Positions 2,756 to 21,728 of a stretch of DNA of 32,000 bases are shown one piece after another. The DNA comes from Candidatus Saccharimonadota bacterium (GTDB lineage Bacteria; Patescibacteriota; Microgenomatia; UBA1406; GWC2-37-13). Each line of letters opens with the position of its first letter. Within the stretch, counting starts at the first letter, position 1. A model generated the notes under the pieces. It was not told the origin of the DNA and did not search any database. It worked only from the letters and a program-made list of their open reading frames with translations. A program made the translations under genes and the position numbers. The DNA lies in assembly GCA_016432445.1 (NCBI GenBank), contig CP066689.1, positions 870,001 through 902,000 on the forward strand, written 5' to 3'.

Positions 2756-4030
2756 ATGATTAAGAAAGGCATATTGATAACTATTATCTTTGTTATTTCT
2801 ACGTTTATTCAGCTATTAAGCCAAATCATTATTACCCGTATATTTGGCGCCAAGCTTGATATTGATATTTTTTTGGCAGCTGTAGCCATACCAACAATTG
2901 CAGTAACTGTAATTTATGGAACCTTAAATGATGCCTTTTTACCTCTTTATGGTGAAAAAAAAGCCAGTAATCCTGAAAAATCAGATGAATATTTTATTTC
3001 CAGTTTAATTACATTAGGAACTATTTCTTTCGTAATCGCTTGGATATTTAGTTTTTTTACTAATCCAATAAGTGCTTTCCTTTATGGAAATAGGGGAGAA
3101 GAGTTTGTAAAGAATGTAGCTGTTCAGATGTCTTACATGTCTTTCAGTCTTCCTCTTTCTGTAATCGCCACTTTATTAGGAGCTTATTATTATACCCACA
3201 AAAAATTCAGTCGTTTTCCTTTTGCCCAACTTATTGGCAGTCTAACTAATTTATTACTTATTGTAATTCTTGCCCCTTATTTGGGAATTTTTTCACTGGT
3301 TATTGCTTTTGTTATTAATATTTTTTTTCAGATAATTTTGGTTATTCCTAAAGCTATTATTAATTTTAAATTTAAACTAGTAAATGTCTTACCTTTGTTT
3401 ATAGCTTGGATACCATTAATTATTGGTAATTTTGCACTAAGAAGTGACATTCTTTTAATGCGGTCATTTGCTTCCAATCTGCCTGAAGGCTACTTTGTTT
3501 ATCTAAACTTAGTTTCCAAAATTTTTGCCTTATCAACCAGCGTCATGACCATTGGTATTCAAGTTTTACTTTTACCCCATTTGGTTGATTATTTTTCTCA
3601 AAAATTACACGAAAAAGCCATTGCCAATGTTGCAAAAGCTAAAATCATTGCTGTCTTTATATCCATAATTGTTACGATTTTACTAATTTTATTAGCTCCT
3701 CTGGCTATTAATATTCTTTTTGTCGGAGGAAAATTCTCTCAAGAAGATGCCAGAATAACTATTTCACTGCTGCCTTTATTCGTCTTACCGGCAATAGGTT
3801 GGGGAGTTAACGCAGTTTTTTTTCAACCCCTTCTGGCTTTAAGAAAGCAGTATCAGCTTGGATTAATTAATATTTTTGCTCTATTTATAAGCTGGACTTC
3901 TGCATGGTTTATTAATAAATATTTAGGACCACTTCCGGCAATTACCTGGGGTTTGATAATTCTCCTGTTTACTGGGATAATAGGAAGTGAAATTCTATGG
4001 CATTATTACAAGAAAAAACTCCTATCTTAA
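2756..4030 (+). CDS. murJ: Lipid II flippase, MurJ/MviN family (MOP superfamily)
   Basis: 424 aa polytopic protein. N-terminal region RIFGAKLDIDIFLAAVAIPT...GTLNDAFLPLYGE matches the MurJ signature pattern (fGa..daF..A..iP......Ga...aFiP). Confidence 0.65.
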   Translation: MIKKGILITIIFVISTFIQLLSQIIITRIFGAKLDIDIFLAAVAIPTIAVTVIYGTLNDAFLPLYGEKKASNPEKSDEYFISSLITLGTISFVIAWIFSFFTNPISAFLYGNRGEEFVKNVAVQMSYMSFSLPLSVIATLLGAYYYTHKKFSRFPFAQLIGSLTNLLLIVILAPYLGIFSLVIAFVINIFFQIILVIPKAIINFKFKLVNVLPLFIAWIPLIIGNFALRSDILLMRSFASNLPEGYFVYLNLVSKIFALSTSVMTIGIQVLLLPHLVDYFSQKLHEKAIANVAKAKIIAVFISIIVTILLILLAPLAINILFVGGKFSQEDARITISLLPLFVLPAIGWGVNAVFFQPLLALRKQYQLGLINIFALFISWTSAWFINKYLGPLPAITWGLIILLFTGIIGSEILWHYYKKKLLS

Positions 4031-9440: not shown

Positions 9441-9455
9441 TTGAACTAATCCTGT
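9441..9455 (-). repeat. Degenerate copy (12/15) of the tRNA-Gly 5' segment
   Basis: The minus strand reads acaGGATTAGTTcAA, against tRNA-Gly GCGGGATTAGTTTAA. It lies about 105 nt downstream of the truncated GIY-YIG ORF in the same orientation. Confidence 0.3.
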
Positions 9456-9560: not shown

Positions 9561-9734
9561 CTACTTAAGTTTTTCGAAATATTCTTCCTTAAAAAGTAAT
9601 TTGAATGGTGCTCGATATTTAGTTGATTTTGACCTACCTGAGTTATGTTGTTCAAATCGTCTTTCAAAATTATCAGTATAACCCACATAGGTTTTTTTGT
9701 CCTTCAGACTTTGGAGGACATAAACGATAAACAT
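9561..9734 (-). pseudogene. GIY-YIG nuclease minigene, C-terminally truncated (57 codons, below the ORF-track cutoff)
   Basis: Translates to MFIVYVLQSLKDKKTYVGYTDNFERRFEQHNSGRSKSTKYRAPFKLLFKEEYFEKLK*. The VYVLQSLKDK stretch matches the 19279 copy. It stops before the conserved C-terminal helix region. Confidence 0.6.
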
Positions 9735-9743
9735 ATATTGTAA

Positions 9744-9782
9744 GGAGCGGGCCGCCCGCCCTTTGGGCGAGGCGAGCCTCGC
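9744..9782 (-). other. GC-rich hairpin pair preceding the truncated GIY-YIG ORF
   Basis: Minus strand: GCGAGG-ctcg-CCTCGC, then GGGCGGG-cgg-CCCGCTC. Sharply GC-rich in an AT-rich background. Confidence 0.45.
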
Positions 9783-9806
9783 TCTTTTTTGTGAAACAAA
9801 AAAGAG
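9782..9806 (-). other. Perfect 11-bp A/T hairpin abutting the tRNA-Gly 3' end
   Basis: CTCTTTTTTGT-ttc-ACAAAAAAGAG. No U-tract follows it, so it is not a canonical terminator. Confidence 0.3.
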
Positions 9807-9875
9807 CGGGATAGGGGAATCGGACCCCTGCCGAAAGATTGGAAATCTTCCGTTCTACCATTAAACTAATCCCGC
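9805..9875 (-). tRNA. tRNA-Gly (anticodon UCC)
   Basis: Manual cloverleaf: acceptor GCGGGAT/ATCCCGC, D stem GTTT/GAAC, anticodon stem GAAGA/TCTTT with loop TTTCCAA, T arm AGGGG-TCCGATT-CCCCT, discriminator T. No encoded CCA. Confidence 0.9.
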
Positions 9876-10129
9876 AGACTGTTCACTAATCTTCTTTTTA
9901 AATAACCTCTCCCAAAACCTGTTTTTAATTGTTTCTCTCTTATCAGTGCATCTGTTTTATTTAAACAGGCTTCGTAATAGACTAAATTAATTTCCGAAAA
10001 CTTTTTAGTTGTTTTAACTTCTTTATTAAGATGTTCTTTATATCTGTTTTTTAAATCTTTACATGAACCTATATAAAATTCATTATTTATCTGTTCATAC
10101 TTACAAAGCAAAACGTACACATAAAACAT
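9866..10129 (-). CDS. Single-domain GIY-YIG nuclease (87 aa)
   Basis: MFYVYVL...FYIGSCKDLKNRYKEH...YYE...REKQLK matches the GIY-(10-11)-YIG, R and E motifs. The last codons CTG CGG GAT TAG are nt -1 to +10 of tRNA-Gly. Confidence 0.8.
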   Translation of the reverse strand: MFYVYVLLCKYEQINNEFYIGSCKDLKNRYKEHLNKEVKTTKKFSEINLVYYEACLNKTDALIREKQLKTGFGRGYLKRRLVNSLRD

Positions 10130-10143
10130 AAACTCATGTTACT

Positions 10144-10170
10144 CCTTACTTTATATTCTGGCAAGTAAGG
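10144..10170 (-). promoter_or_regulatory. 8-bp hairpin CCTTACTT/AAGTAAGG overlapping the AAGGAG ribosome-binding site of the GIY-YIG ORF
   Basis: The minus strand reads CCTTACTTgccagaatataAAGTAAGGAG. The 3' arm contains most of the SD sequence. Confidence 0.3.
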
Positions 10171-10178
10171 AAACGTTC

Positions 10179-10239
10179 TTCGCCGAAAGCTAAAGCATTC
10201 TGGCGGACCCGCCTTAATGAGCGCAGCACTTTAGGCGGA
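10179..10239 (-). other. 61-nt GC-rich twin-hairpin leader (core GCGGGTCCGC)
   Basis: Sequence TCCGCCTAAAG...TTAAGGCGGG then TCCGCCAGAATG...TTTCGGCGAA. Organisation parallels 19207-19264. Confidence 0.5.
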
Positions 10240-10259
10240 TACCATTAAACTAATCCCGC
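10240..10259 (-). repeat. Exact 20-nt duplicate of tRNA-Gly nt 1-20 (GCGGGATTAGTTTAATGGTA)
   Basis: Identical to 9856-9875. The match ends in the D-loop region. Confidence 0.9.
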
Positions 10260-10271
10260 ATGCGGTATTAA

Positions 10272-10280
10272 ATTATATCA
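10272..10280 (-). promoter_or_regulatory. Extended -10 box TGATATAAT upstream of the tRNA-Gly 5' fragment
   Basis: The minus strand reads tttTGATATAATttaataccgcatGCGGG. It lies 12 nt before the fragment. Confidence 0.45.
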
Positions 10281-10295
10281 AAAAACTTGAGGATT

Positions 10296-11039
10296 TTAAG
10301 TTTTTTTTAAAAAAAGTTCTTGGCTTTTAATCAGATCTGAAGGGCTATTAACCCCAATCCCAACTTCCTCAAACGGTACTTTAAAACCGATTACTCTCCG
10401 ACCATCAGTAACTGCCATCTTTATTAAACTGTTAAGGTAATATTCTCCAGTTACTGGAGATTTTTTAATTCTGCCGACAAAATCCTTTAAAAATTGGTAG
10501 TTAAAACAATATAAGGCGGCATTAAGTTCAGTTATCTTCCTCTGATCAACCGTCGCATCTTTTTGTTCAACACTGTCGATTATTTCATAGTTATTATTTC
10601 TAATAATCCTTCCCCAAGCTAACTCATCAGGTTTTGCGTGCTCGGTAGTTATCATTGTTACCGCAGGATGATTATCTTTATGCATTTCAATCAAGTTCTC
10701 AATCGTCTTTTTTGAATAAAACATCATATGGTCGCCATGCCCAACTAAAACACTCTCAGGAGAATAAGAAAATAATGCTTCAATTCCAACCTTAACCGCA
10801 TTTCCTGTACCAACTCTTTCTTCCTGACAAGCATAAATGACATCATAACCTTTTAAACTATCCTCAATACTTTGATAAAAAGCTCCCACAACTACAACTA
10901 TTGGGTAGGAGATATCTTTAAAAAGCTCCACTCCATAAATGATCATGGGTTTACCCATAAATGGAGTAACCACTTTATTTTTTTCTTTTGATTCCATCCT
11001 TTTGCCAAGTCCCGCGGCAAGAATAATTGAAGCAATCAT
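10296..11039 (-). CDS. Sugar-phosphate nucleotidyltransferase, GlmU N-terminal (uridyltransferase) domain-like
   Basis: ILAAGLGKRM (G-rich NTP loop), GKPMI, GTGNAV and VGHGDHMMF parallel GlmU blocks. The ATG at 11039 (MIASII..) is preferred over the TTG at 11054, which overlaps galE. Confidence 0.65.
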   Translation of the reverse strand: MIASIILAAGLGKRMESKEKNKVVTPFMGKPMIIYGVELFKDISYPIVVVVGAFYQSIEDSLKGYDVIYACQEERVGTGNAVKVGIEALFSYSPESVLVGHGDHMMFYSKKTIENLIEMHKDNHPAVTMITTEHAKPDELAWGRIIRNNNYEIIDSVEQKDATVDQRKITELNAALYCFNYQFLKDFVGRIKKSPVTGEYYLNSLIKMAVTDGRRVIGFKVPFEEVGIGVNSPSDLIKSQELFLKKT

Positions 11040-15516: not shown

Positions 15517-17718
15517 TTATTTATTTCCTGAATGAAACTTATCATGTATCTCTTTTAATCTAATATTAGTCACATGAGTATAAATTTGTGTCGTTGAGAT
15601 ATTTTTATGTCCCAGCATTTCTTGAACCGAACGCAGGTCAGCACCGTGAGTCAGCAAATCAGTAGCGTACGAATTGTGACTCAAGATACCATTAGTTATC
15701 AAATTATGATTCTTCTCTACAAAAAAATCATAAACAGTATGTTGGGATGATCCTAACTTTTTCTTAGTTTTTACTTTTAACCATTTGATATTGTTGGCAT
15801 TAGCCAGAAGATAATAAGCTTTATATTCCTTATCTGAAATAAGATTGAGTTGCCTGAACCCTTTAATAAGGCTCATAAAAGTGTCTTTTTGAGGTAAAAT
15901 TTTTGCGACATAACGGGAAACATGCTTAATGCCGAATTTTCTTTCGAAAATAGGACAATATTGAACTTTATTTTCTTTTGCTTTGGTAATGCATTTTTGA
16001 ATTATATCCTGAAATGGTAATTTCTCTTCAAAACGGGTTTCTTTTAAACTAAAATCATTAACTTTCATTGTCGGGATATGATTGATAAAATTATCAATAC
16101 TTTGTTTATCAATAATCACCAATCCATAAATATTACCCGTGAAGGATTTTCCATTATGAGGCAGGATTACTCTTCGAGTCCTACCCTCTAAATGAGCATC
16201 TATTCCGAAATAAAGGAATAACATCTGGATTTGTTCAAGAAGGATTTTTGAGGAGGAAAATAATCGGGGAGAAGTAGTTAGCCCTTCAGCATCATAAAAA
16301 CCGGCAATAAAATTGGTAATTTCTTCGCCTGTTGCGGAAAAAAGCTTTTGAGGAACTGTTTTTTTATTTGATAGTTCAATCATCCCGAGATCCTCGAAAA
16401 AACGATTTAGCTCTGTATTATAAAAATATAATTGATACGAATTACTGTTCTCGTTTTTCTTAATATGAGACTTTATCTTTAATGTTTTCTCGATTAATTG
16501 CTGGTAAAACTCTAAATAATCTAAATTCTTATCATAGATTCTGATTACTCTTCCGGATAAATTAACAATGCCATCCCCCAGGACATAACCAATAATCCGC
16601 CATAACGGAGGATTTAATATTTTTTTGCCTTGGTGAAATATTTTTTTAACGGCAACTATATAATCGCTAACTTTAAGATCCTTAGCTTTTTTTTCAACAA
16701 TACTGTCTTTTGAAAAAACAAATATCCTATGCTCGCCGGAACATTTCAATTCATAACCATCGGCTTTTATCTCATACAGGTATGTATTATGTTGACTTTT
16801 TTGGATGACTTTATCTTTTTCCACCTTAAGAGATTTTGTATTGAAAGAATAAATATCTTTGCGCGCAGAATAAAATAATTCTCTGGCGGTGAGGATAGAA
16901 TCATTAACGGCGATTAATGTTTGCGGATGTAAACAATGCCTTAATACGTGAGGACCGATACGGAATAAGATACCGGCTTTTTTTCTATACTTATCAATAG
17001 TTCTTTCAATTGAACGCACGGATAATCTAAGCTTATTTTCGGTTAAACCTTCCTCAGGACGCGGTCCGGAGTATCTGATAAACAACGGCTTATAAGGATC
17101 ATCTCTTTTTTGAAGATACATTGAAAGCCAATCAGTGGCTTTTTTGGATAAAAATACCACCCTGGCTTTGCCTCCTTTTCCAATCACTCCAAACTCGCCT
17201 GAGTCCAAATTAATCTGGTCACGGTTAAGACCGGCAAGCTCTGACACACGGAGTCCGGTTGAGAAGAGTACCTCAAGCAAAGCTCTGTCTCTTAAGCCAA
17301 TTATTTCTGAGTAATCAACGGCGGCAAATAATTTTTCTAAATCTTCAGGAGATAAAAACTTAATTGACCGGTCACTCTGTTTTCCCAGTTCGATAACTTC
17401 AGGCGCAATTACTTTAACTTTTTGCTTTATTAAAAACCTAAAAAAAGAACGGAGGGCCACTAAAAAATAATTTTGAGTTTGCCTTTTTAAATCACCCTTG
17501 TGAGGATTTTTATATTGGTGGGAAAGATAAAGACGGAAGTTTCTTATGATATTGTCATCAATCTTTTCAACCTCAAAATCTTCAAGCTTCATTGTGTCCA
17601 ATAGCCAAGTTTGAAAAAAATTAAGGTAGTAACCATACATGCGGACCGTTTTTACTGAAAGATTTCGATCAAGCTCGCAGTATTCCAAAAAACGTAAAAC
17701 CGCCTCTTTTATCCCCAT
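15517..17718 (-). CDS. XerC/XerD-type tyrosine recombinase interrupted by an intein (312-aa extein + 421-aa intein)
   Basis: N-terminal SAM-like domain. Box [13 protein letters not shown]. Box II HVLRH|...|SYATDLL split by the insert. [14 protein letters not shown] carries the catalytic Tyr. Confidence 0.85.
15673..16935 (-). mobile_element. Intein with LAGLIDADG homing-endonuclease domain (Cys262-Asn682 of the recombinase ORF)
   Basis: It starts [10 protein letters not shown] (block A). SGEHRIFV is block-B-like. LAGLIDADG motifs [11 protein letters not shown] and [10 protein letters not shown]. It ends [21 protein letters not shown], followed by Ser as the +1 residue. Confidence 0.85.
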
Positions 17719-17760: not shown

Positions 17761-18363
17761 TTATTTTGCAATAAATGCATTCTGAGGAAGTGTTATCCCA
17801 GATTCAACTCGATGAATTGTATGAGCTAACAATCTATGTACACCATCAATAATATGAAGATGCCCATCTGGTCTTCTACCAAAAGGTCTTGGCGTTAATA
17901 TTAATGGGGGTAGCATCGATCCTTTTCTGTATTCTTCAAGAATTTCAAGCATGTCTTTTTCTTTCCAAGGTTTTACATCAAAAAAACAGGTTAAATATTT
18001 GGCAGCTACACTTTCAAGCGTACGATCACGCCCTTTGTCAGTTAATATTGCAGAAATGTGTTTAGGATCCGGTTCATAATACCATTGAATACTATTCAAG
18101 TCAGAAAGAGTAAGAGCAGTTGATACAAAAACTTTATGATATCTGATTGCAGCTATAGCTGTTGAATTAGGATTAACACCTCTTTGATTTTCAAGATTTG
18201 TATAAAATACTTCTATATCTGCAGATGAACGAGTTTTTCCTTCGGAAGGCAATGAGCGAAAATAAGCTTCTCTCAACCTTTGACTAGGTAAATAACGGCC
18301 TACTGCATCTAAGAAATGTCTGTTTGGAATACTACGCGCAAATTTAGCTGAAGTTATTTCCAT
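17761..18363 (-). CDS. Hypothetical protein with C-terminal ParB/Srx-like nuclease motif
   Basis: LPPLILTPRPF...HLHIIDGVHRLLAH fits the ParB-like PPI..(n)..iDGhHR signature. The start was moved to the ATG at 18363 (MEITSAK..) because 18366-18446 is tRNA-Leu. Confidence 0.55.
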   Translation of the reverse strand: MEITSAKFARSIPNRHFLDAVGRYLPSQRLREAYFRSLPSEGKTRSSADIEVFYTNLENQRGVNPNSTAIAAIRYHKVFVSTALTLSDLNSIQWYYEPDPKHISAILTDKGRDRTLESVAAKYLTCFFDVKPWKEKDMLEILEEYRKGSMLPPLILTPRPFGRRPDGHLHIIDGVHRLLAHTIHRVESGITLPQNAFIAK

Positions 18364-18365
18364 TG

Positions 18366-18446
18366 TGCCAGAGGAGGGAGTTGAACCCTCACGCCTTACG
18401 GCACAGGATCCTAAATCCTGCGTGTATGCCATTTCACCACTCTGGC
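18366..18446 (-). tRNA. tRNA-Leu (anticodon UAG), class II with long variable arm
   Basis: Manual fold: acceptor GCCAGAG/CTCTGGC, anticodon stem CAGGA/TCCTG with loop TTTAGGA, variable arm TGCCGTAAGGCGT, T arm GAGGG-TTCAACT-CCCTC, discriminator A. Confidence 0.9.
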
Positions 18447-18463
18447 TTGTGAAGATCATTAAA

Positions 18464-19137: not shown

Positions 19138-19146
19138 TGATAGAAT
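19138..19146 (+). promoter_or_regulatory. Extended -10-like box TGATAGAAT upstream of the tRNA-Ser 5' fragment
   Basis: Same TGATAnAAT pattern as at 1233, 6677, 10272 and 28029. It lies 43 nt before the fragment. Confidence 0.3.
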
Positions 19147-19189
19147 TAGGTTGTAAGAACAGTGTAAGAAAAGGCTAAAGATTTCATCA

Positions 19190-19206
19190 GGAGGGGTCGC
19201 ATAGTG
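19190..19206 (+). repeat. Exact 17-nt duplicate of tRNA-Ser nt 1-17 (GGAGGGGTCGCATAGTG)
   Basis: Identical to 19539-19555. The match ends inside the D-loop. Confidence 0.9.
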
Positions 19207-19264
19207 CCCGCTCAGAAGCAAGCTTTGAGCGGGTCCGCTCACGAACATAAGTGAGCTGAGCGGA
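19207..19264 (+). other. 58-nt GC-rich twin-hairpin leader (core GCGGGTCCGC)
   Basis: CCCGCTCA-gaagcaagctt-TGAGCGGG then TCCGCTCA-cgaacataagtgagc-TGAGCGGA. Each stem is 8 bp. Confidence 0.55.
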
Positions 19265-19278
19265 GACAAATAACAAAT

Positions 19279-19539
19279 ATGTTCTATGTATACGTATTAC
19301 AAAGTTTGAAAGATAAAAGATTCTATATAGGTTTTAGTGCGGATTTAAAAAAAAGAGTTAAAGATCATAACGAAGGTAGAGTTGTAAGCACAAAGAATAG
19401 AAGGCCATTAGATTTAATCTATTATGAAGCTTATAAGTTTGAACAACAGGCACGTAAACAGGAATTATTTTATAAAACAGGACAAGGAAGACGAGTCTTG
19501 AAAACACGTCTTACAGGTAATGAAATACTAGGAAAATAG
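19279..19539 (+). CDS. Single-domain GIY-YIG nuclease (86 aa)
   Basis: MFYVYVLQSLKDKRFYIGFSADLKKRVKDHN...YYEAY...Q..RKQE matches the GIY-YIG motifs. The final G of the TAG stop codon is nt 1 of tRNA-Ser. Confidence 0.8.
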   Translation: MFYVYVLQSLKDKRFYIGFSADLKKRVKDHNEGRVVSTKNRRPLDLIYYEAYKFEQQARKQELFYKTGQGRRVLKTRLTGNEILGK

Positions 19540-19625
19540 GAGGGGTCGCATAGTGGACTAGTGCGTACGCCTGGAAAGCGTATGTGGTCGCAAGACTACC
19601 GCGGGTTCGAATCCCGCCCTCTCCG
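19539..19625 (+). tRNA. tRNA-Ser (anticodon GGA), class II
   Basis: Manual fold: acceptor GGAGGGG/CCTCTCC (one G-U pair), anticodon stem TACGC/GCGTA with loop CTGGAAA, variable arm GTGGTC-gcaa-GACTAC, T arm GCGGG-TTCGAAT-CCCGC, discriminator G. Confidence 0.9.
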
Positions 19626-19632
19626 CACTTTT

Positions 19633-20949
19633 ATGACTCAAAAAGATGCTTTGGAACTATTAAAACTCGGATATTCCGTATACCTTACTGGAGAAGCGGG
19701 ATCTGGAAAAACATATCTTTTAAATAAATACATAAAATCACTTCATAAACAAAAAGTCGAAGTTGGTATCACGGCATCAACTGGTATCGCCGCCACCCAT
19801 TTAGGAGGAACAACTATTGATTCCTGGTCTGGTTTAGGAATGCGTGATGAAATAACTCATTCCGATCTTATCTATATTAGCCAAAACCACAATCTGCAAA
19901 AAAGAATTAAAAAGACTAAAATCCTTATTATTGATGAAGTATCAATGCTTCATGGTAAAAGACTTGATAGCATTAATAAAATCTGCCAAGCAATACGCAA
20001 AAACAATTCACCTTTCGGAGGAATGCAGGTTGTTTTATCAGGAGATTTTTTTCAATTGCCTCCTGTATCTGAGGAGAGACGGAATTATGATTACGTTTAT
20101 AAATCCAATGTCTGGCATCAAATGAATCCAAAAATTATTTATCTGGAAAGTCAATACAGACAAACAGACCCAGTTTTTAATGATGTCTTATCGGCACTAA
20201 GAGAAAATAGAATAGAGGAGAGGATAAAAAATATTCTCCATCAAACCATTAATAATACCTTTTCCGGTTCAATTGTCCCAACCAAACTTTACACTCATAA
20301 TGTTGACGTTGATCAAATAAATAAAAATCATCTCGATCAGATTAACCAAAAGCCATACGAATATGTAATGACTGCAGTTGGTCACGAAAAACTGGTCGAG
20401 TTCTTAAAGCGTGGATGCTTAGTACCAGAACATCTTACTCTTAAAAAAGGCGCCCAGGTAATGTTTGTCCGTAATAACTATAAAGCTGGCTACTTTAATG
20501 GAACTGTTGGAAAAGTTGTTGGTTTTGACCGGGATAAAACTCCCGTAGTTGAAACTTATGAGAAGAAAAAAATCCATGTCAAACCTGATAGCTGGAATAT
20601 TATGGAAAACAATAAAATTCTGGCAGAGATTAAACAGATTCCGCTTCGGTTGGCCTGGGCAATAACTATCCATAAAAGTCAGGGGATGACCCTTTCTTGC
20701 GCCGAGATTGATCTTTCAAAGTCTTTTGTCCATGGTATGGGCTATGTAGCTTTGTCACGCTTAAGACACCTCAAAGGTCTTCGGCTTTTAGGAATGAATG
20801 ATCTTGCTCTTTCCGTTAACCCTGAAGTTACAGAAGTTGACAAAATACTTCGCCAAAAATCTATTCAAGCCGTTGAAGATTTGAAAAAAATGGGCTGGTT
20901 TAAACGCTTCTTCGCCAGACGAAAATTTATGTATCATCTTACTTCTTAA
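19633..20949 (+). CDS. Pif1/RecD-like SF1 DNA helicase (AAA_30-type)
   Basis: Walker A GEAGSGKTYLL, Walker B ILIIDEVSML, VVLSGDFFQLPPV, and C-terminal AITIHKSQGMT. The start was moved to the ATG at 19633 because the track's N-terminus is tRNA-Ser read as protein. Confidence 0.8.
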   Translation: MTQKDALELLKLGYSVYLTGEAGSGKTYLLNKYIKSLHKQKVEVGITASTGIAATHLGGTTIDSWSGLGMRDEITHSDLIYISQNHNLQKRIKKTKILIIDEVSMLHGKRLDSINKICQAIRKNNSPFGGMQVVLSGDFFQLPPVSEERRNYDYVYKSNVWHQMNPKIIYLESQYRQTDPVFNDVLSALRENRIEERIKNILHQTINNTFSGSIVPTKLYTHNVDVDQINKNHLDQINQKPYEYVMTAVGHEKLVEFLKRGCLVPEHLTLKKGAQVMFVRNNYKAGYFNGTVGKVVGFDRDKTPVVETYEKKKIHVKPDSWNIMENNKILAEIKQIPLRLAWAITIHKSQGMTLSCAEIDLSKSFVHGMGYVALSRLRHLKGLRLLGMNDLALSVNPEVTEVDKILRQKSIQAVEDLKKMGWFKRFFARRKFMYHLTS

Positions 20950-21557: not shown

Positions 21558-21728
21558 CTCTATTAACTTGGCAACAAAAATTTCCCTATCACCTCCTGAA
21601 AAGGATAAAAAGTTTGATACAAAGCATCAGAACAGCATTTCCAATCCTTCGACTCCGCTCAGGGCGAGCCCGGGAGGTTGAAAAGTTTGAAAAGTTGAAA
21701 TCATTTTGCTTCACTTTCTAAACAAAGT

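Follow-up and report, generated by a model that had tools for sequence, protein, structure and literature searches.

How does a nuclease gene of only 86 codons come to lie between a complete tRNA gene and a broken copy of the beginning of that same tRNA? The question is raised by a stretch of 32,000 nucleotides (nt) from a Candidatus Saccharimonadota bacterium (contig CP066689.1, assembly GCA_016432445.1, positions 870,001 to 902,000), here called the window, which carries GIY-YIG nuclease genes in this position beside tRNA-Ser(GGA) on the plus strand and beside tRNA-Gly(TCC) on the minus strand. The evidence moderately favors the view that both loci are selfish, free-standing, homing-endonuclease-like cassettes that live within tRNA transcription units and belong to a large family. 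Such a cassette would consist of one GIY-YIG gene for 80–90 amino acids (aa) between an intact tRNA and a disabled partial copy of it, with the missing part of the disabled copy replaced by GC-rich hairpins.

The tRNA-Ser locus

The Ser locus comprises the following features.

19138-19146, plus strand: TGATAGAAT, an extended -10-like box by its sequence, presumed promoter of the tRNA
19190-19206, plus strand: exact copy of tRNA-Ser(GGA) nt 1-17, stump of a disabled tRNA copy (repeat search)
19207-19233, plus strand: hairpin H1 (CCCGCTCAGA...TTTGAGCGGG), from folding, conserved with compensatory changes in 11 Ser-clade leaders
19234-19264, plus strand: hairpin H2 (TCCGCTCA...TGAGCGGA), from folding and 11 Ser-clade leaders, 59.5 bits with covariance model R1
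19279-19539, plus strand: open reading frame (ORF) for an 86-aa GIY-YIG nuclease of Slx1/UPF0213 type, catalytic domain only (Pfam, PDB profile, AF2/Foldseek)
19539-19626 (ARAGORN) or 19539-19625 (Rfam, 55 bits), plus strand: intact tRNA-Ser(GGA)
19633-20949, plus strand: Pif1-family helicase gene, starting 7 nt past tRNA-Ser (context)

All five parts that the initial annotation had claimed for this locus, namely box, stump, twin hairpin, ORF, and tRNA, were recovered at these positions. The sequence GGAGGGGTCGCATAGTG has exactly two occurrences in the window (19190-19206 and 19539-19555) and no match in 100 shuffles, and the repeat is 18 nt long once the preceding A is counted. The stump gives no tRNA score in an Rfam search. 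It is followed by two adjacent hairpins (19207-19264; -30.3 kcal/mol, z = -4.87) whose stability was reached by none of 200 shuffles, and a Shine-Dalgarno-like GGAG lies partly within the 3' arm of H2. The first nucleotide of the tRNA (G) is at the same time the last base of the TAG stop codon of the ORF. The TGATAGAAT box, now 43 nt 5' of the fragment, is present as proposed; a sigma-70 scan made no call at 19138-19146, for want of a -35 partner, and its promoter role is therefore no more than a resemblance to the consensus. No terminator was called between tRNA-Ser and the helicase gene, which probably shares one transcription unit or operon with the tRNA and the cassette. Several independent sequencing runs yielded contigs with an identical nuclease gene in the same rhomboid/GIY-YIG/helicase context, and the arrangement is therefore no assembly artefact. 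The host belongs to Candidatus Roizmanbacteria, within the candidate phyla radiation.

The tRNA-Gly locus and a decayed third copy

The second locus lies on the minus strand and is followed by a third GIY-YIG copy.

10272-10299, minus strand: promoter-like site (TTAAAA, 16-nt spacer, TGATATAAT, TG), called by the sigma-70 scan with a -35
10240-10259, minus strand: exact copy of tRNA-Gly(TCC) nt 1-20 (repeat search)
10144-10239, minus strand: leader with GC-rich hairpins at 10239-10208 and 10207-10179 and a third hairpin at 10170-10144 (sequence, fold)
9866-10129, minus strand: 87-aa GIY-YIG ORF (PF01541, 48.3 bits)
9804-9875, minus strand: intact tRNA-Gly(TCC) (ARAGORN, Rfam)
9741-9808, minus strand: terminator-like hairpin that includes the tRNA-Gly 3' end, then a GC-rich compound hairpin, preceding the third GIY-YIG copy
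9561-9734, minus strand: pseudogene-like GIY-YIG ORF of 57 aa, directly 3' of tRNA-Gly (hidden Markov model, E = 2e-19)
9441-9452, minus strand: degenerate tRNA-Gly 5' remnant (GGATTAGTTcAA), repeat family D1, 3 copies with spacings of 384 and 420

The promoter-like site ends 13 nt 5' of the tRNA-Gly fragment, and GCGGGATTAGTTTAATGGTA is found on the minus strand at 10259-10240 and again at 9875-9856, with no match in shuffles. The ORF reads into tRNA-Gly and takes its stop codon from the tRNA itself (U8-A9-G10 = TAG, an offset of -10), while AAGGAG lies on the 3' arm of the third leader hairpin (10170-10144). The claim that this locus repeats the architecture of the Ser locus holds for the order of parts but not for the stability of its two drawn hairpins, since the fold energy of the leader is no better than that of shuffles (z = -0.8). 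The third GIY-YIG copy of the window ends before residue E62, and the tRNA-Gly remnant (9452-9441) sits where a full-length third ORF would end. Together with the GC hairpins in front of this ORF, the remnant indicates that the Gly locus is a tandem array of two units, the second of which has decayed.

A widespread family of tRNA-linked GIY-YIG genes

The 86-aa protein has hundreds of relatives of 80–90 aa, mostly in Patescibacteria. A census scan with one genome per species kept 80 of 231 loci, and the set, including the window and three metagenome contigs, comprises 97 GIY-YIG copies from 83 sources. A tRNA was counted as adjacent when it lay at most 60 nt from a GIY-YIG copy, and as having a self-duplicate when at least 14 nt recurred within 700 nt. 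By these measures, 55 tRNAs are adjacent to the 97 copies, all on the same strand, where a rough estimate from the background tRNA density of the census loci gives about two by chance. A self-duplicate lies near 45 of the 55 adjacent tRNAs (82%) versus 14 of 58 non-adjacent ones, and nine of those 14 are still only 61-256 nt from a GIY-YIG copy. The minimal GIY-YIG family coupled to tRNAs and to partial tRNA duplications, which had been proposed from the window alone, is thus real and widespread, and with duplicates beside 45 of 55 adjacent tRNAs the two window loci are no coincidence among nuclease genes that mostly lack one.

Two arrangements were found. The upstream type (34 loci) runs from a copy of the tRNA 5' part through the ORF to the intact tRNA, as in the window; the downstream type (11 loci) is its mirror image, in which the intact tRNA comes first, the ORF begins with an ATG 0-20 nt past it, and a 3' copy reaching the tRNA 3' end follows. 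About 14 isotypes are involved, and the hosts include groups of the candidate phyla radiation (CPR), Acidobacteriota, Omnitrophota, Bacteroidota, Ignavibacteria, Verrucomicrobiota, Planctomycetota, and Elusimicrobia. Tandem copies occur in 12 of the 83 sources. At L035 (2436-2940), four tandem partial copies of tRNA-Asn (nt 1-37, 46-59) with a period of 108 nt precede an intact tRNA-Asn and a GIY-YIG ORF.

The disabled tRNA copy and its GC-rich hairpins

One end of the duplication always coincides with an end of the tRNA (nt 1 or the 3' end). The other falls at nt 9, 16-18, 20-27, 33-37, or 54-67, that is, anywhere from nt 9 to the T-loop. The initial annotation had read a fixed five-part architecture and a break in the D-loop from the two window loci; neither survives these variable ends and the 11 mirror-image loci with 3' fragments, and a D-loop-specific insertion is ruled out by the census breakpoints. 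Many disabled copies are near full length, with the anticodon arm swapped for a short GC hairpin or with hairpins placed in the D-loop. The hairpins go with the disabled copy on whichever side of the ORF it lies, in 28 of the 34 upstream-type and nine of the 11 downstream-type loci.

Hairpins of one type recur across the family. The motif GTCGCC-N3-4-GGCGAC replaces the anticodon arm in nuclease clades that are far apart and beside tRNAs for Gly, Val, Ile, Lys, Arg, and Pro; it is exact in L030, L037, L038, L055, L061, L071, L072, and L077, and imperfect variants were found in L059, L063, L069, L073, and L078. Another form, GTCCGCC-N-GGCGGA, stands beside Arg and Ala tRNAs, and YCCGCC...GGCGGR hairpins are D-loop insertions. 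In the Ser clade, the leader follows the pattern YCCGCTCRG-loop-CYGAGCGGR, then TCCGCTCA, a variable inner hairpin, and TGAGCGGA; 99.4% of alignment cells are paired, three of the 16 pairs covary, and most stem positions are invariant. The covariance model of this leader (R1), a check that had been suggested at the outset, finds its matches upstream of Ser-clade ORFs and nothing else in 507 kb. No Rfam family matches the leader, either at the gathering cut-off or at E <= 10, and the search gave no intron or ribozyme family in or around the ORF.

The window has a GC content of 33%, and such GC-rich hairpins occur solely at its three GIY-YIG sites. An isolated intergenic GC-rich stretch at 21641-21685 (…TCCGCTCAGGGCGAGCCCGGGAGG…) shares TCCGCTCAG with H2, with no GIY-YIG ORF nearby. 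Apart from this unrelated stretch, confinement to the three sites rules out that the hairpins are a general repeat of the genome. The disabled copies were also considered as folded, tRNA-like processing signals, a reading ruled out for now: among the copies of 10 loci compared with the Rfam tRNA model, none reaches E <= 0.1, and the only partial match is at L037, downstream of the intact tRNA.

In most Ser-clade relatives, among them the closest one of the window (L001), tRNA nt 1-35 are kept, and the junction follows "TG" both in this form and in the 17-nt form of the window. Since the relatives break at nt 35, the 17-nt stump of the window appears to be a later shortening, and the 17-nt and 20-nt stumps are probably short and decayed versions of the longer fragments of relatives. 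Candidate roles for the GC hairpins are control of expression, the breaking of homology between the two tRNA copies, and protein binding.

The nuclease

The 86-aa ORF matches the GIY-YIG domain PF01541 with 52.2 bits (48.3 for the Gly ORF; cut-off 22.6). Residues Y5, Y16, G18, R26, H30, and E62 are invariant in 24 aligned sequences, so that the catalytic Tyr/Tyr/Arg and the metal-binding Glu are present. The best PDB profile matches are the UPF0213 protein BH0048 (1zg2, E = 7e-11), EF2693 (1ywl), and Slx1; the AF2 model (pLDDT 92.3) is matched by Foldseek to Slx1 (TM 0.62-0.67), to UPF0213, and more distantly to the catalytic domain of I-TevI.

The nuclease domain spans nearly all of the 86 aa. 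It has no C-terminal RING or zinc-finger domain, which sets the protein outside Slx1 proper, and no separate DNA-binding domain was found with Pfam, the alignment, or AF2. By sequence the protein falls outside the phage Seg and group I intron endonuclease families: with TIGR01453 it reaches 19-29 bits where 56 are required, and PHROG matches have E >= 2e-4. A search of 50,697 phage records gave three weak matches; assignment to a defense system, a phage family, or an NCBI family was rejected, all matches being sub-threshold. There is no curated family for the protein beyond PF01541.

Overlap of the ORF with the tRNA

Roughly half of the upstream-type loci, the two of the window among them, have the stop codon of the ORF at the tRNA 5' end or within it. 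Many ORFs have no stop codon of their own and end at the near-universal U8-A9-G10 (TAG) of the tRNA, as at window 9866-9875 and in L030, L037, L038, L061, L069, L072, and L077-L079, while ORFs that run into tRNA-Ser stop at tRNA nt 13-15. Nothing promoter-like lies between ORF and tRNA. This layout suggests that the cassette has no promoter of its own and depends on that of the tRNA, from which transcription would pass by way of the fragment and the hairpin leader into the ORF; RNase P would then free the tRNA. Processing of the tRNA would remove or truncate the stop codon and leave a non-stop mRNA; the loss of the stop codon and a GGAG half buried in H2 would both hold expression of the nuclease low. 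The overlap suggests a simple coupling of tRNA processing to the expression of a selfish gene.

Presence, absence, and borders of the unit

The signs of mobility include loci that have near-identical tRNA-Ser genes and differ in the cassette. At L091 such a tRNA-Ser lacks fragment, hairpin, and ORF, in flanks not shown to be orthologous; the absence of the upstream fragment together with the nuclease gene speaks against the possibility that such fragments are tRNA pseudogenes present regardless of it. L090 combines a near-identical tRNA-Ser with a fragment of nt 1-35, one hairpin, and a Ser-clade ORF, and L092 combines another with an ORF of a different GIY-YIG lineage and with a copy broken up by many hairpins. 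Contigs with the identical nuclease of the window are all occupied. Synteny failed to provide an empty site, as relatives of the Pif1 helicase (~70% identity) have no conserved neighborhood. At L084 (2242-2501), a GIY-YIG gene of a different, UPF0213-like subfamily lies 1 nt before a helicase relative (71% identity), with no tRNA or fragment at this gene.

The syntenic loci L012 and L013 allow the borders of the unit to be seen. They share a 343-nt unit of hairpin and ORF at 98% identity, against 76% for the tRNA; the flanks, where they align, are more diverged than the unit as judged by eye, with most sites conserved. The borders are sharp, running from tRNA nt 35 directly into TCCGCTC at one end and from ...TTTT into tRNA nt 1 at the other. 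L012 carries the unit twice, with 100% identity. Its two flanking tRNA copies are identical; those of L013 have 3-4 differences and are closer to each other than to those of L012. The downstream tRNA was discarded as whole cargo of the element, given cassettes 98% and tRNAs 76% identical, and a transfer between unrelated genomes was discarded since the alignment shows the flanks to be syntenic.

On a wider scale, nuclease clades follow tRNA identity, apart from occasional hops to another isotype; these hops were detected by the comparison of nuclease phylogeny with tRNA identity that had been suggested at the outset. ORFs that are about 72-76% identical in DNA are joined to tRNAs of different isotypes (Glu and Leu in one case, Val and Lys or Ile in another), and in the CPR the ORFs are often as similar as the adjacent tRNAs, or more so. 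In one Arg(ACG) clade, either copy may be the intact one, and both orientations occur. In Acidobacteriota, tRNAs are 95-100% identical and ORFs about 70-77%. The earlier suggestion that tRNA genes are targeted by structure rather than by sequence finds no support in clades that track tRNA identity with few hops; the Slx1-like fold of the model keeps recognition of structure possible.

A sister clade without tRNA

A sister clade within the same nuclease family has no tRNA beside it (L020, L026, L029, L032, L039, L046, L050, L057, L070, L075, and L076, around 2940-3290; CPR variants in L021, L034, and L067). Its genes are flanked by inverted repeats of 13-24 nt with the consensus CTAG-TGCCGTTCCAACTT ... 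AAGTTGGAACGGCA-CTAG. Translation ends within the right repeat, and the left CTAG often provides the stop codon for the upstream gene. The layout resembles that of a small element with inverted repeats that duplicates a CTAG target. Miniature copies of about 55-100 nt that lack the ORF and have the same CTAG ends were found at L050 (1727-1826), which keeps both inverted repeats, and at L070 (2910-2964), which keeps the right one only; one stands in tandem with a full element. They are derivatives resembling miniature inverted-repeat transposable elements. The window Ser and Gly loci have no terminal inverted repeats, only AT-rich chance pairs.

Weighing of the explanations

If the cassettes are homing-endonuclease-like, the nuclease would, by analogy with SegB of phages T4 and T6, cut or nick tRNA genes that lack the cassette, and recombinational repair would copy the cassette in and yield tandem units of tRNA and ORF, of which arrays were observed. 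Only arrangements with one complete tRNA would survive, and the redundant copies seen in the census are truncated and interrupted. Several points weigh against this reading. No cleavage activity or target site is known, and a catalytic domain without the DNA-binding module of SegB or I-TevI leaves unexplained how a specific tRNA gene is found. Any target borne by the tRNA should be retained in the adjacent intact gene, and self-immunity is thus unexplained as well. The empty site of L091 is not in a demonstrably orthologous context, the flanking tRNA segments of L012 and L013 are both host-specific where simple homing with co-conversion predicts otherwise, and the Acidobacteriota pattern fits long vertical residence as well as it fits mobility. 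A function of the GC hairpins is not established, with stems mostly invariant and 3/16 pairs covarying.

A rival reading makes the element transposon-like, its nuclease recognizing hairpins or an extruded tRNA cloverleaf and serving as the enzyme of excision and insertion, with the GC hairpins or inverted repeats as cis-acting ends and the segment from the tRNA acceptor end to a loop as a long target-site duplication. We regard this as rather unlikely. The sharp borders of the 343-nt unit with its host-specific flanking repeats, a duplication that always has one end at tRNA nt 1 or the 3' end, and a fold like that of Slx1, a structure-specific nuclease, all agree with it, as does, in particular, the sister clade with its 13-24 nt CTAG-bounded inverted repeats and ORF-less miniatures. 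Against it, the window loci lack terminal inverted repeats, the hairpins follow the broken tRNA copy and no fixed end of the ORF, duplications of 17-55 nt vary in a way unlike a fixed staggered cut, and we know of no GIY-YIG transposase. A broader proposal to which we give similarly little weight joins the cassettes and the inverted-repeat sister clade in a new class of autonomous mobile element, whose sole protein would be a structure-guided, Slx1-like GIY-YIG nuclease of 80–90 aa, acting as a kind of transposase or in homing and recognizing hairpins or a tRNA-gene cloverleaf in place of a long sequence; insertion would take place at the base or loops of DNA secondary structures, and hairpins and inverted repeats would be the cis-acting ends.

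It is unlikely that the gene is a resident housekeeping repair nuclease, co-transcribed with tRNAs, and that the fragments reflect an unrelated decay of tandem tRNAs. Such a gene would be in keeping with UPF0213/YhbQ-type proteins being common on chromosomes, with relatives that have no tRNA linkage, such as L084, and with the Acidobacteriota, where the tRNA is far more conserved than the ORF. It accords poorly with the rarity of self-fragments at tRNAs remote from GIY-YIG genes, with the empty allele of L091 that has no fragment, with truncated copies and tandem arrays, with about 14 isotypes and switches between close ORFs, and with the unit of L012 and L013 being 98% identical where the tRNA is 76%. 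Very improbable, finally, is a device at the level of RNA, in which stump and hairpins form a functional leader controlling a nuclease that acts on the tRNA or its precursor; the leader could direct processing, serve as a decoy that competes for the acceptor strand of the tRNA, or work like an antitoxin RNA. In favor of this, the fold of the leader is preserved and a few of its pairs change in a compensatory way, the 3' arm of H2 takes in part of a Shine-Dalgarno-like motif, and translation is tied to RNase P processing where ORF and tRNA overlap. Yet the disabled copies score as tRNA in 0/10 loci, no Rfam family matches the leader, tandem arrays and presence/absence are left unexplained, and to our knowledge all characterized members of the GIY-YIG domain family act on DNA.

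Other features of the window

A tyrosine recombinase of 733 aa with Phage_integrase domains is encoded at 15517-17718 on the minus strand and is interrupted by an intein that has a LAGLIDADG endonuclease domain (precomputed Pfam matches of an identical gene in L085). At 17761-18459, also on the minus strand, a 232-aa ORF as listed overlaps the same-strand tRNA-Leu(TAG) at 18365-18446; its true start probably lies downstream of the tRNA.

Comparison with known systems

Genomic islands in tRNA genes extend over kilobases, carry the gene of a tyrosine or serine recombinase, and give rise to a duplicate of the tRNA 3' end. The cassettes resemble such integrase-borne islands and prophages in being inserted at a tRNA gene, with a partial direct repeat of the tRNA flanking the insert. 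They differ in an insert of about 350 nt, in the nuclease as the sole ORF between the repeats, and, in the window, in the duplicated 5' end; no recombinase gene lies between the window repeats, and the locus is no integrase-type island. A group I intron in a tRNA gene does not fit either, as no Rfam intron matches and the downstream tRNA is complete alone; the nuclease ORF lies outside any intron or intein, between the tRNA fragment and the complete tRNA.

The best sequence and structure matches of the nuclease are in the UPF0213/YhbQ/Slx1 branch. Slx1 has a C-terminal zinc-finger/RING domain and a partner, Slx4, and the cassette nuclease has neither; the matched UPF0213 proteins are deposited as "hypothetical", without a stated function. 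GIY-YIG genes are among those that Patescibacteria are predicted to have donated horizontally to other bacteria (PMC12455944). No description of the arrangement was found in the full-text literature, where coverage was incomplete and an earlier description is possible.

The closest known case in architecture is that of the mORFs of fungal mitochondria (Allomyces atp6; Glomus atp6, atp9, cox2, and nad3), in which a LAGLIDADG or GIY-YIG ORF is inserted together with a duplicated gene end (PMC3630166). One gene copy remains functional and the other is a fragment, and many of the ORFs continue the reading frame of the host gene or have no stop codon of their own (PMC3630166). The census loci have the same layout, an endonuclease ORF between the functional tRNA and what remains of a second, partial copy of it; unlike these loci, mORFs are organellar, target protein genes, and duplicate the 3' end.

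The closest in behavior, by analogy, is SegB, a GIY-YIG homing endonuclease of phages T4 and T6 that cuts within tRNA genes at the TpsiC motif, is found beside tRNAs of many isotypes with statistical enrichment, and drives tandem amplification of tRNA and segB by homologous recombination (PMC2330249; PMC13096335). Cassette and SegB share the GIY-YIG catalytic domain and a gene embedded among tRNA genes. The phage protein SegB has about 220 aa and binds DNA through its C-terminal part, whereas the cassettes are chromosomal, encode 80–90 aa with the catalytic domain only, and show no meaningful sequence match to phage families; hairpin-capped partial tRNA copies and ORFs ending inside the tRNA are absent from the accounts of SegB (PMC2330249; PMC13096335). 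As the sequence and domain tests fail, the cassette is not filed as a member of the SegB family.

If the homing-endonuclease-like reading is right, tRNA-associated GIY-YIG homing elements would reach beyond T-even-type phages and be present on chromosomes across many uncultured bacterial phyla, including the genome-reduced CPR, and the cassette may be the smallest known self-contained nuclease cassette at an essential gene, which raises the question of how a bare catalytic domain finds a tRNA gene. It would also account for many oddities annotated as "tRNA fragment" or "tRNA pseudogene" and for short GIY-YIG ORFs in metagenome-assembled genomes. Seen against these systems, the cassettes look like an undescribed chromosomal relative of the phage homing-endonuclease genes in tRNA genes, one that most likely works in the manner of SegB.

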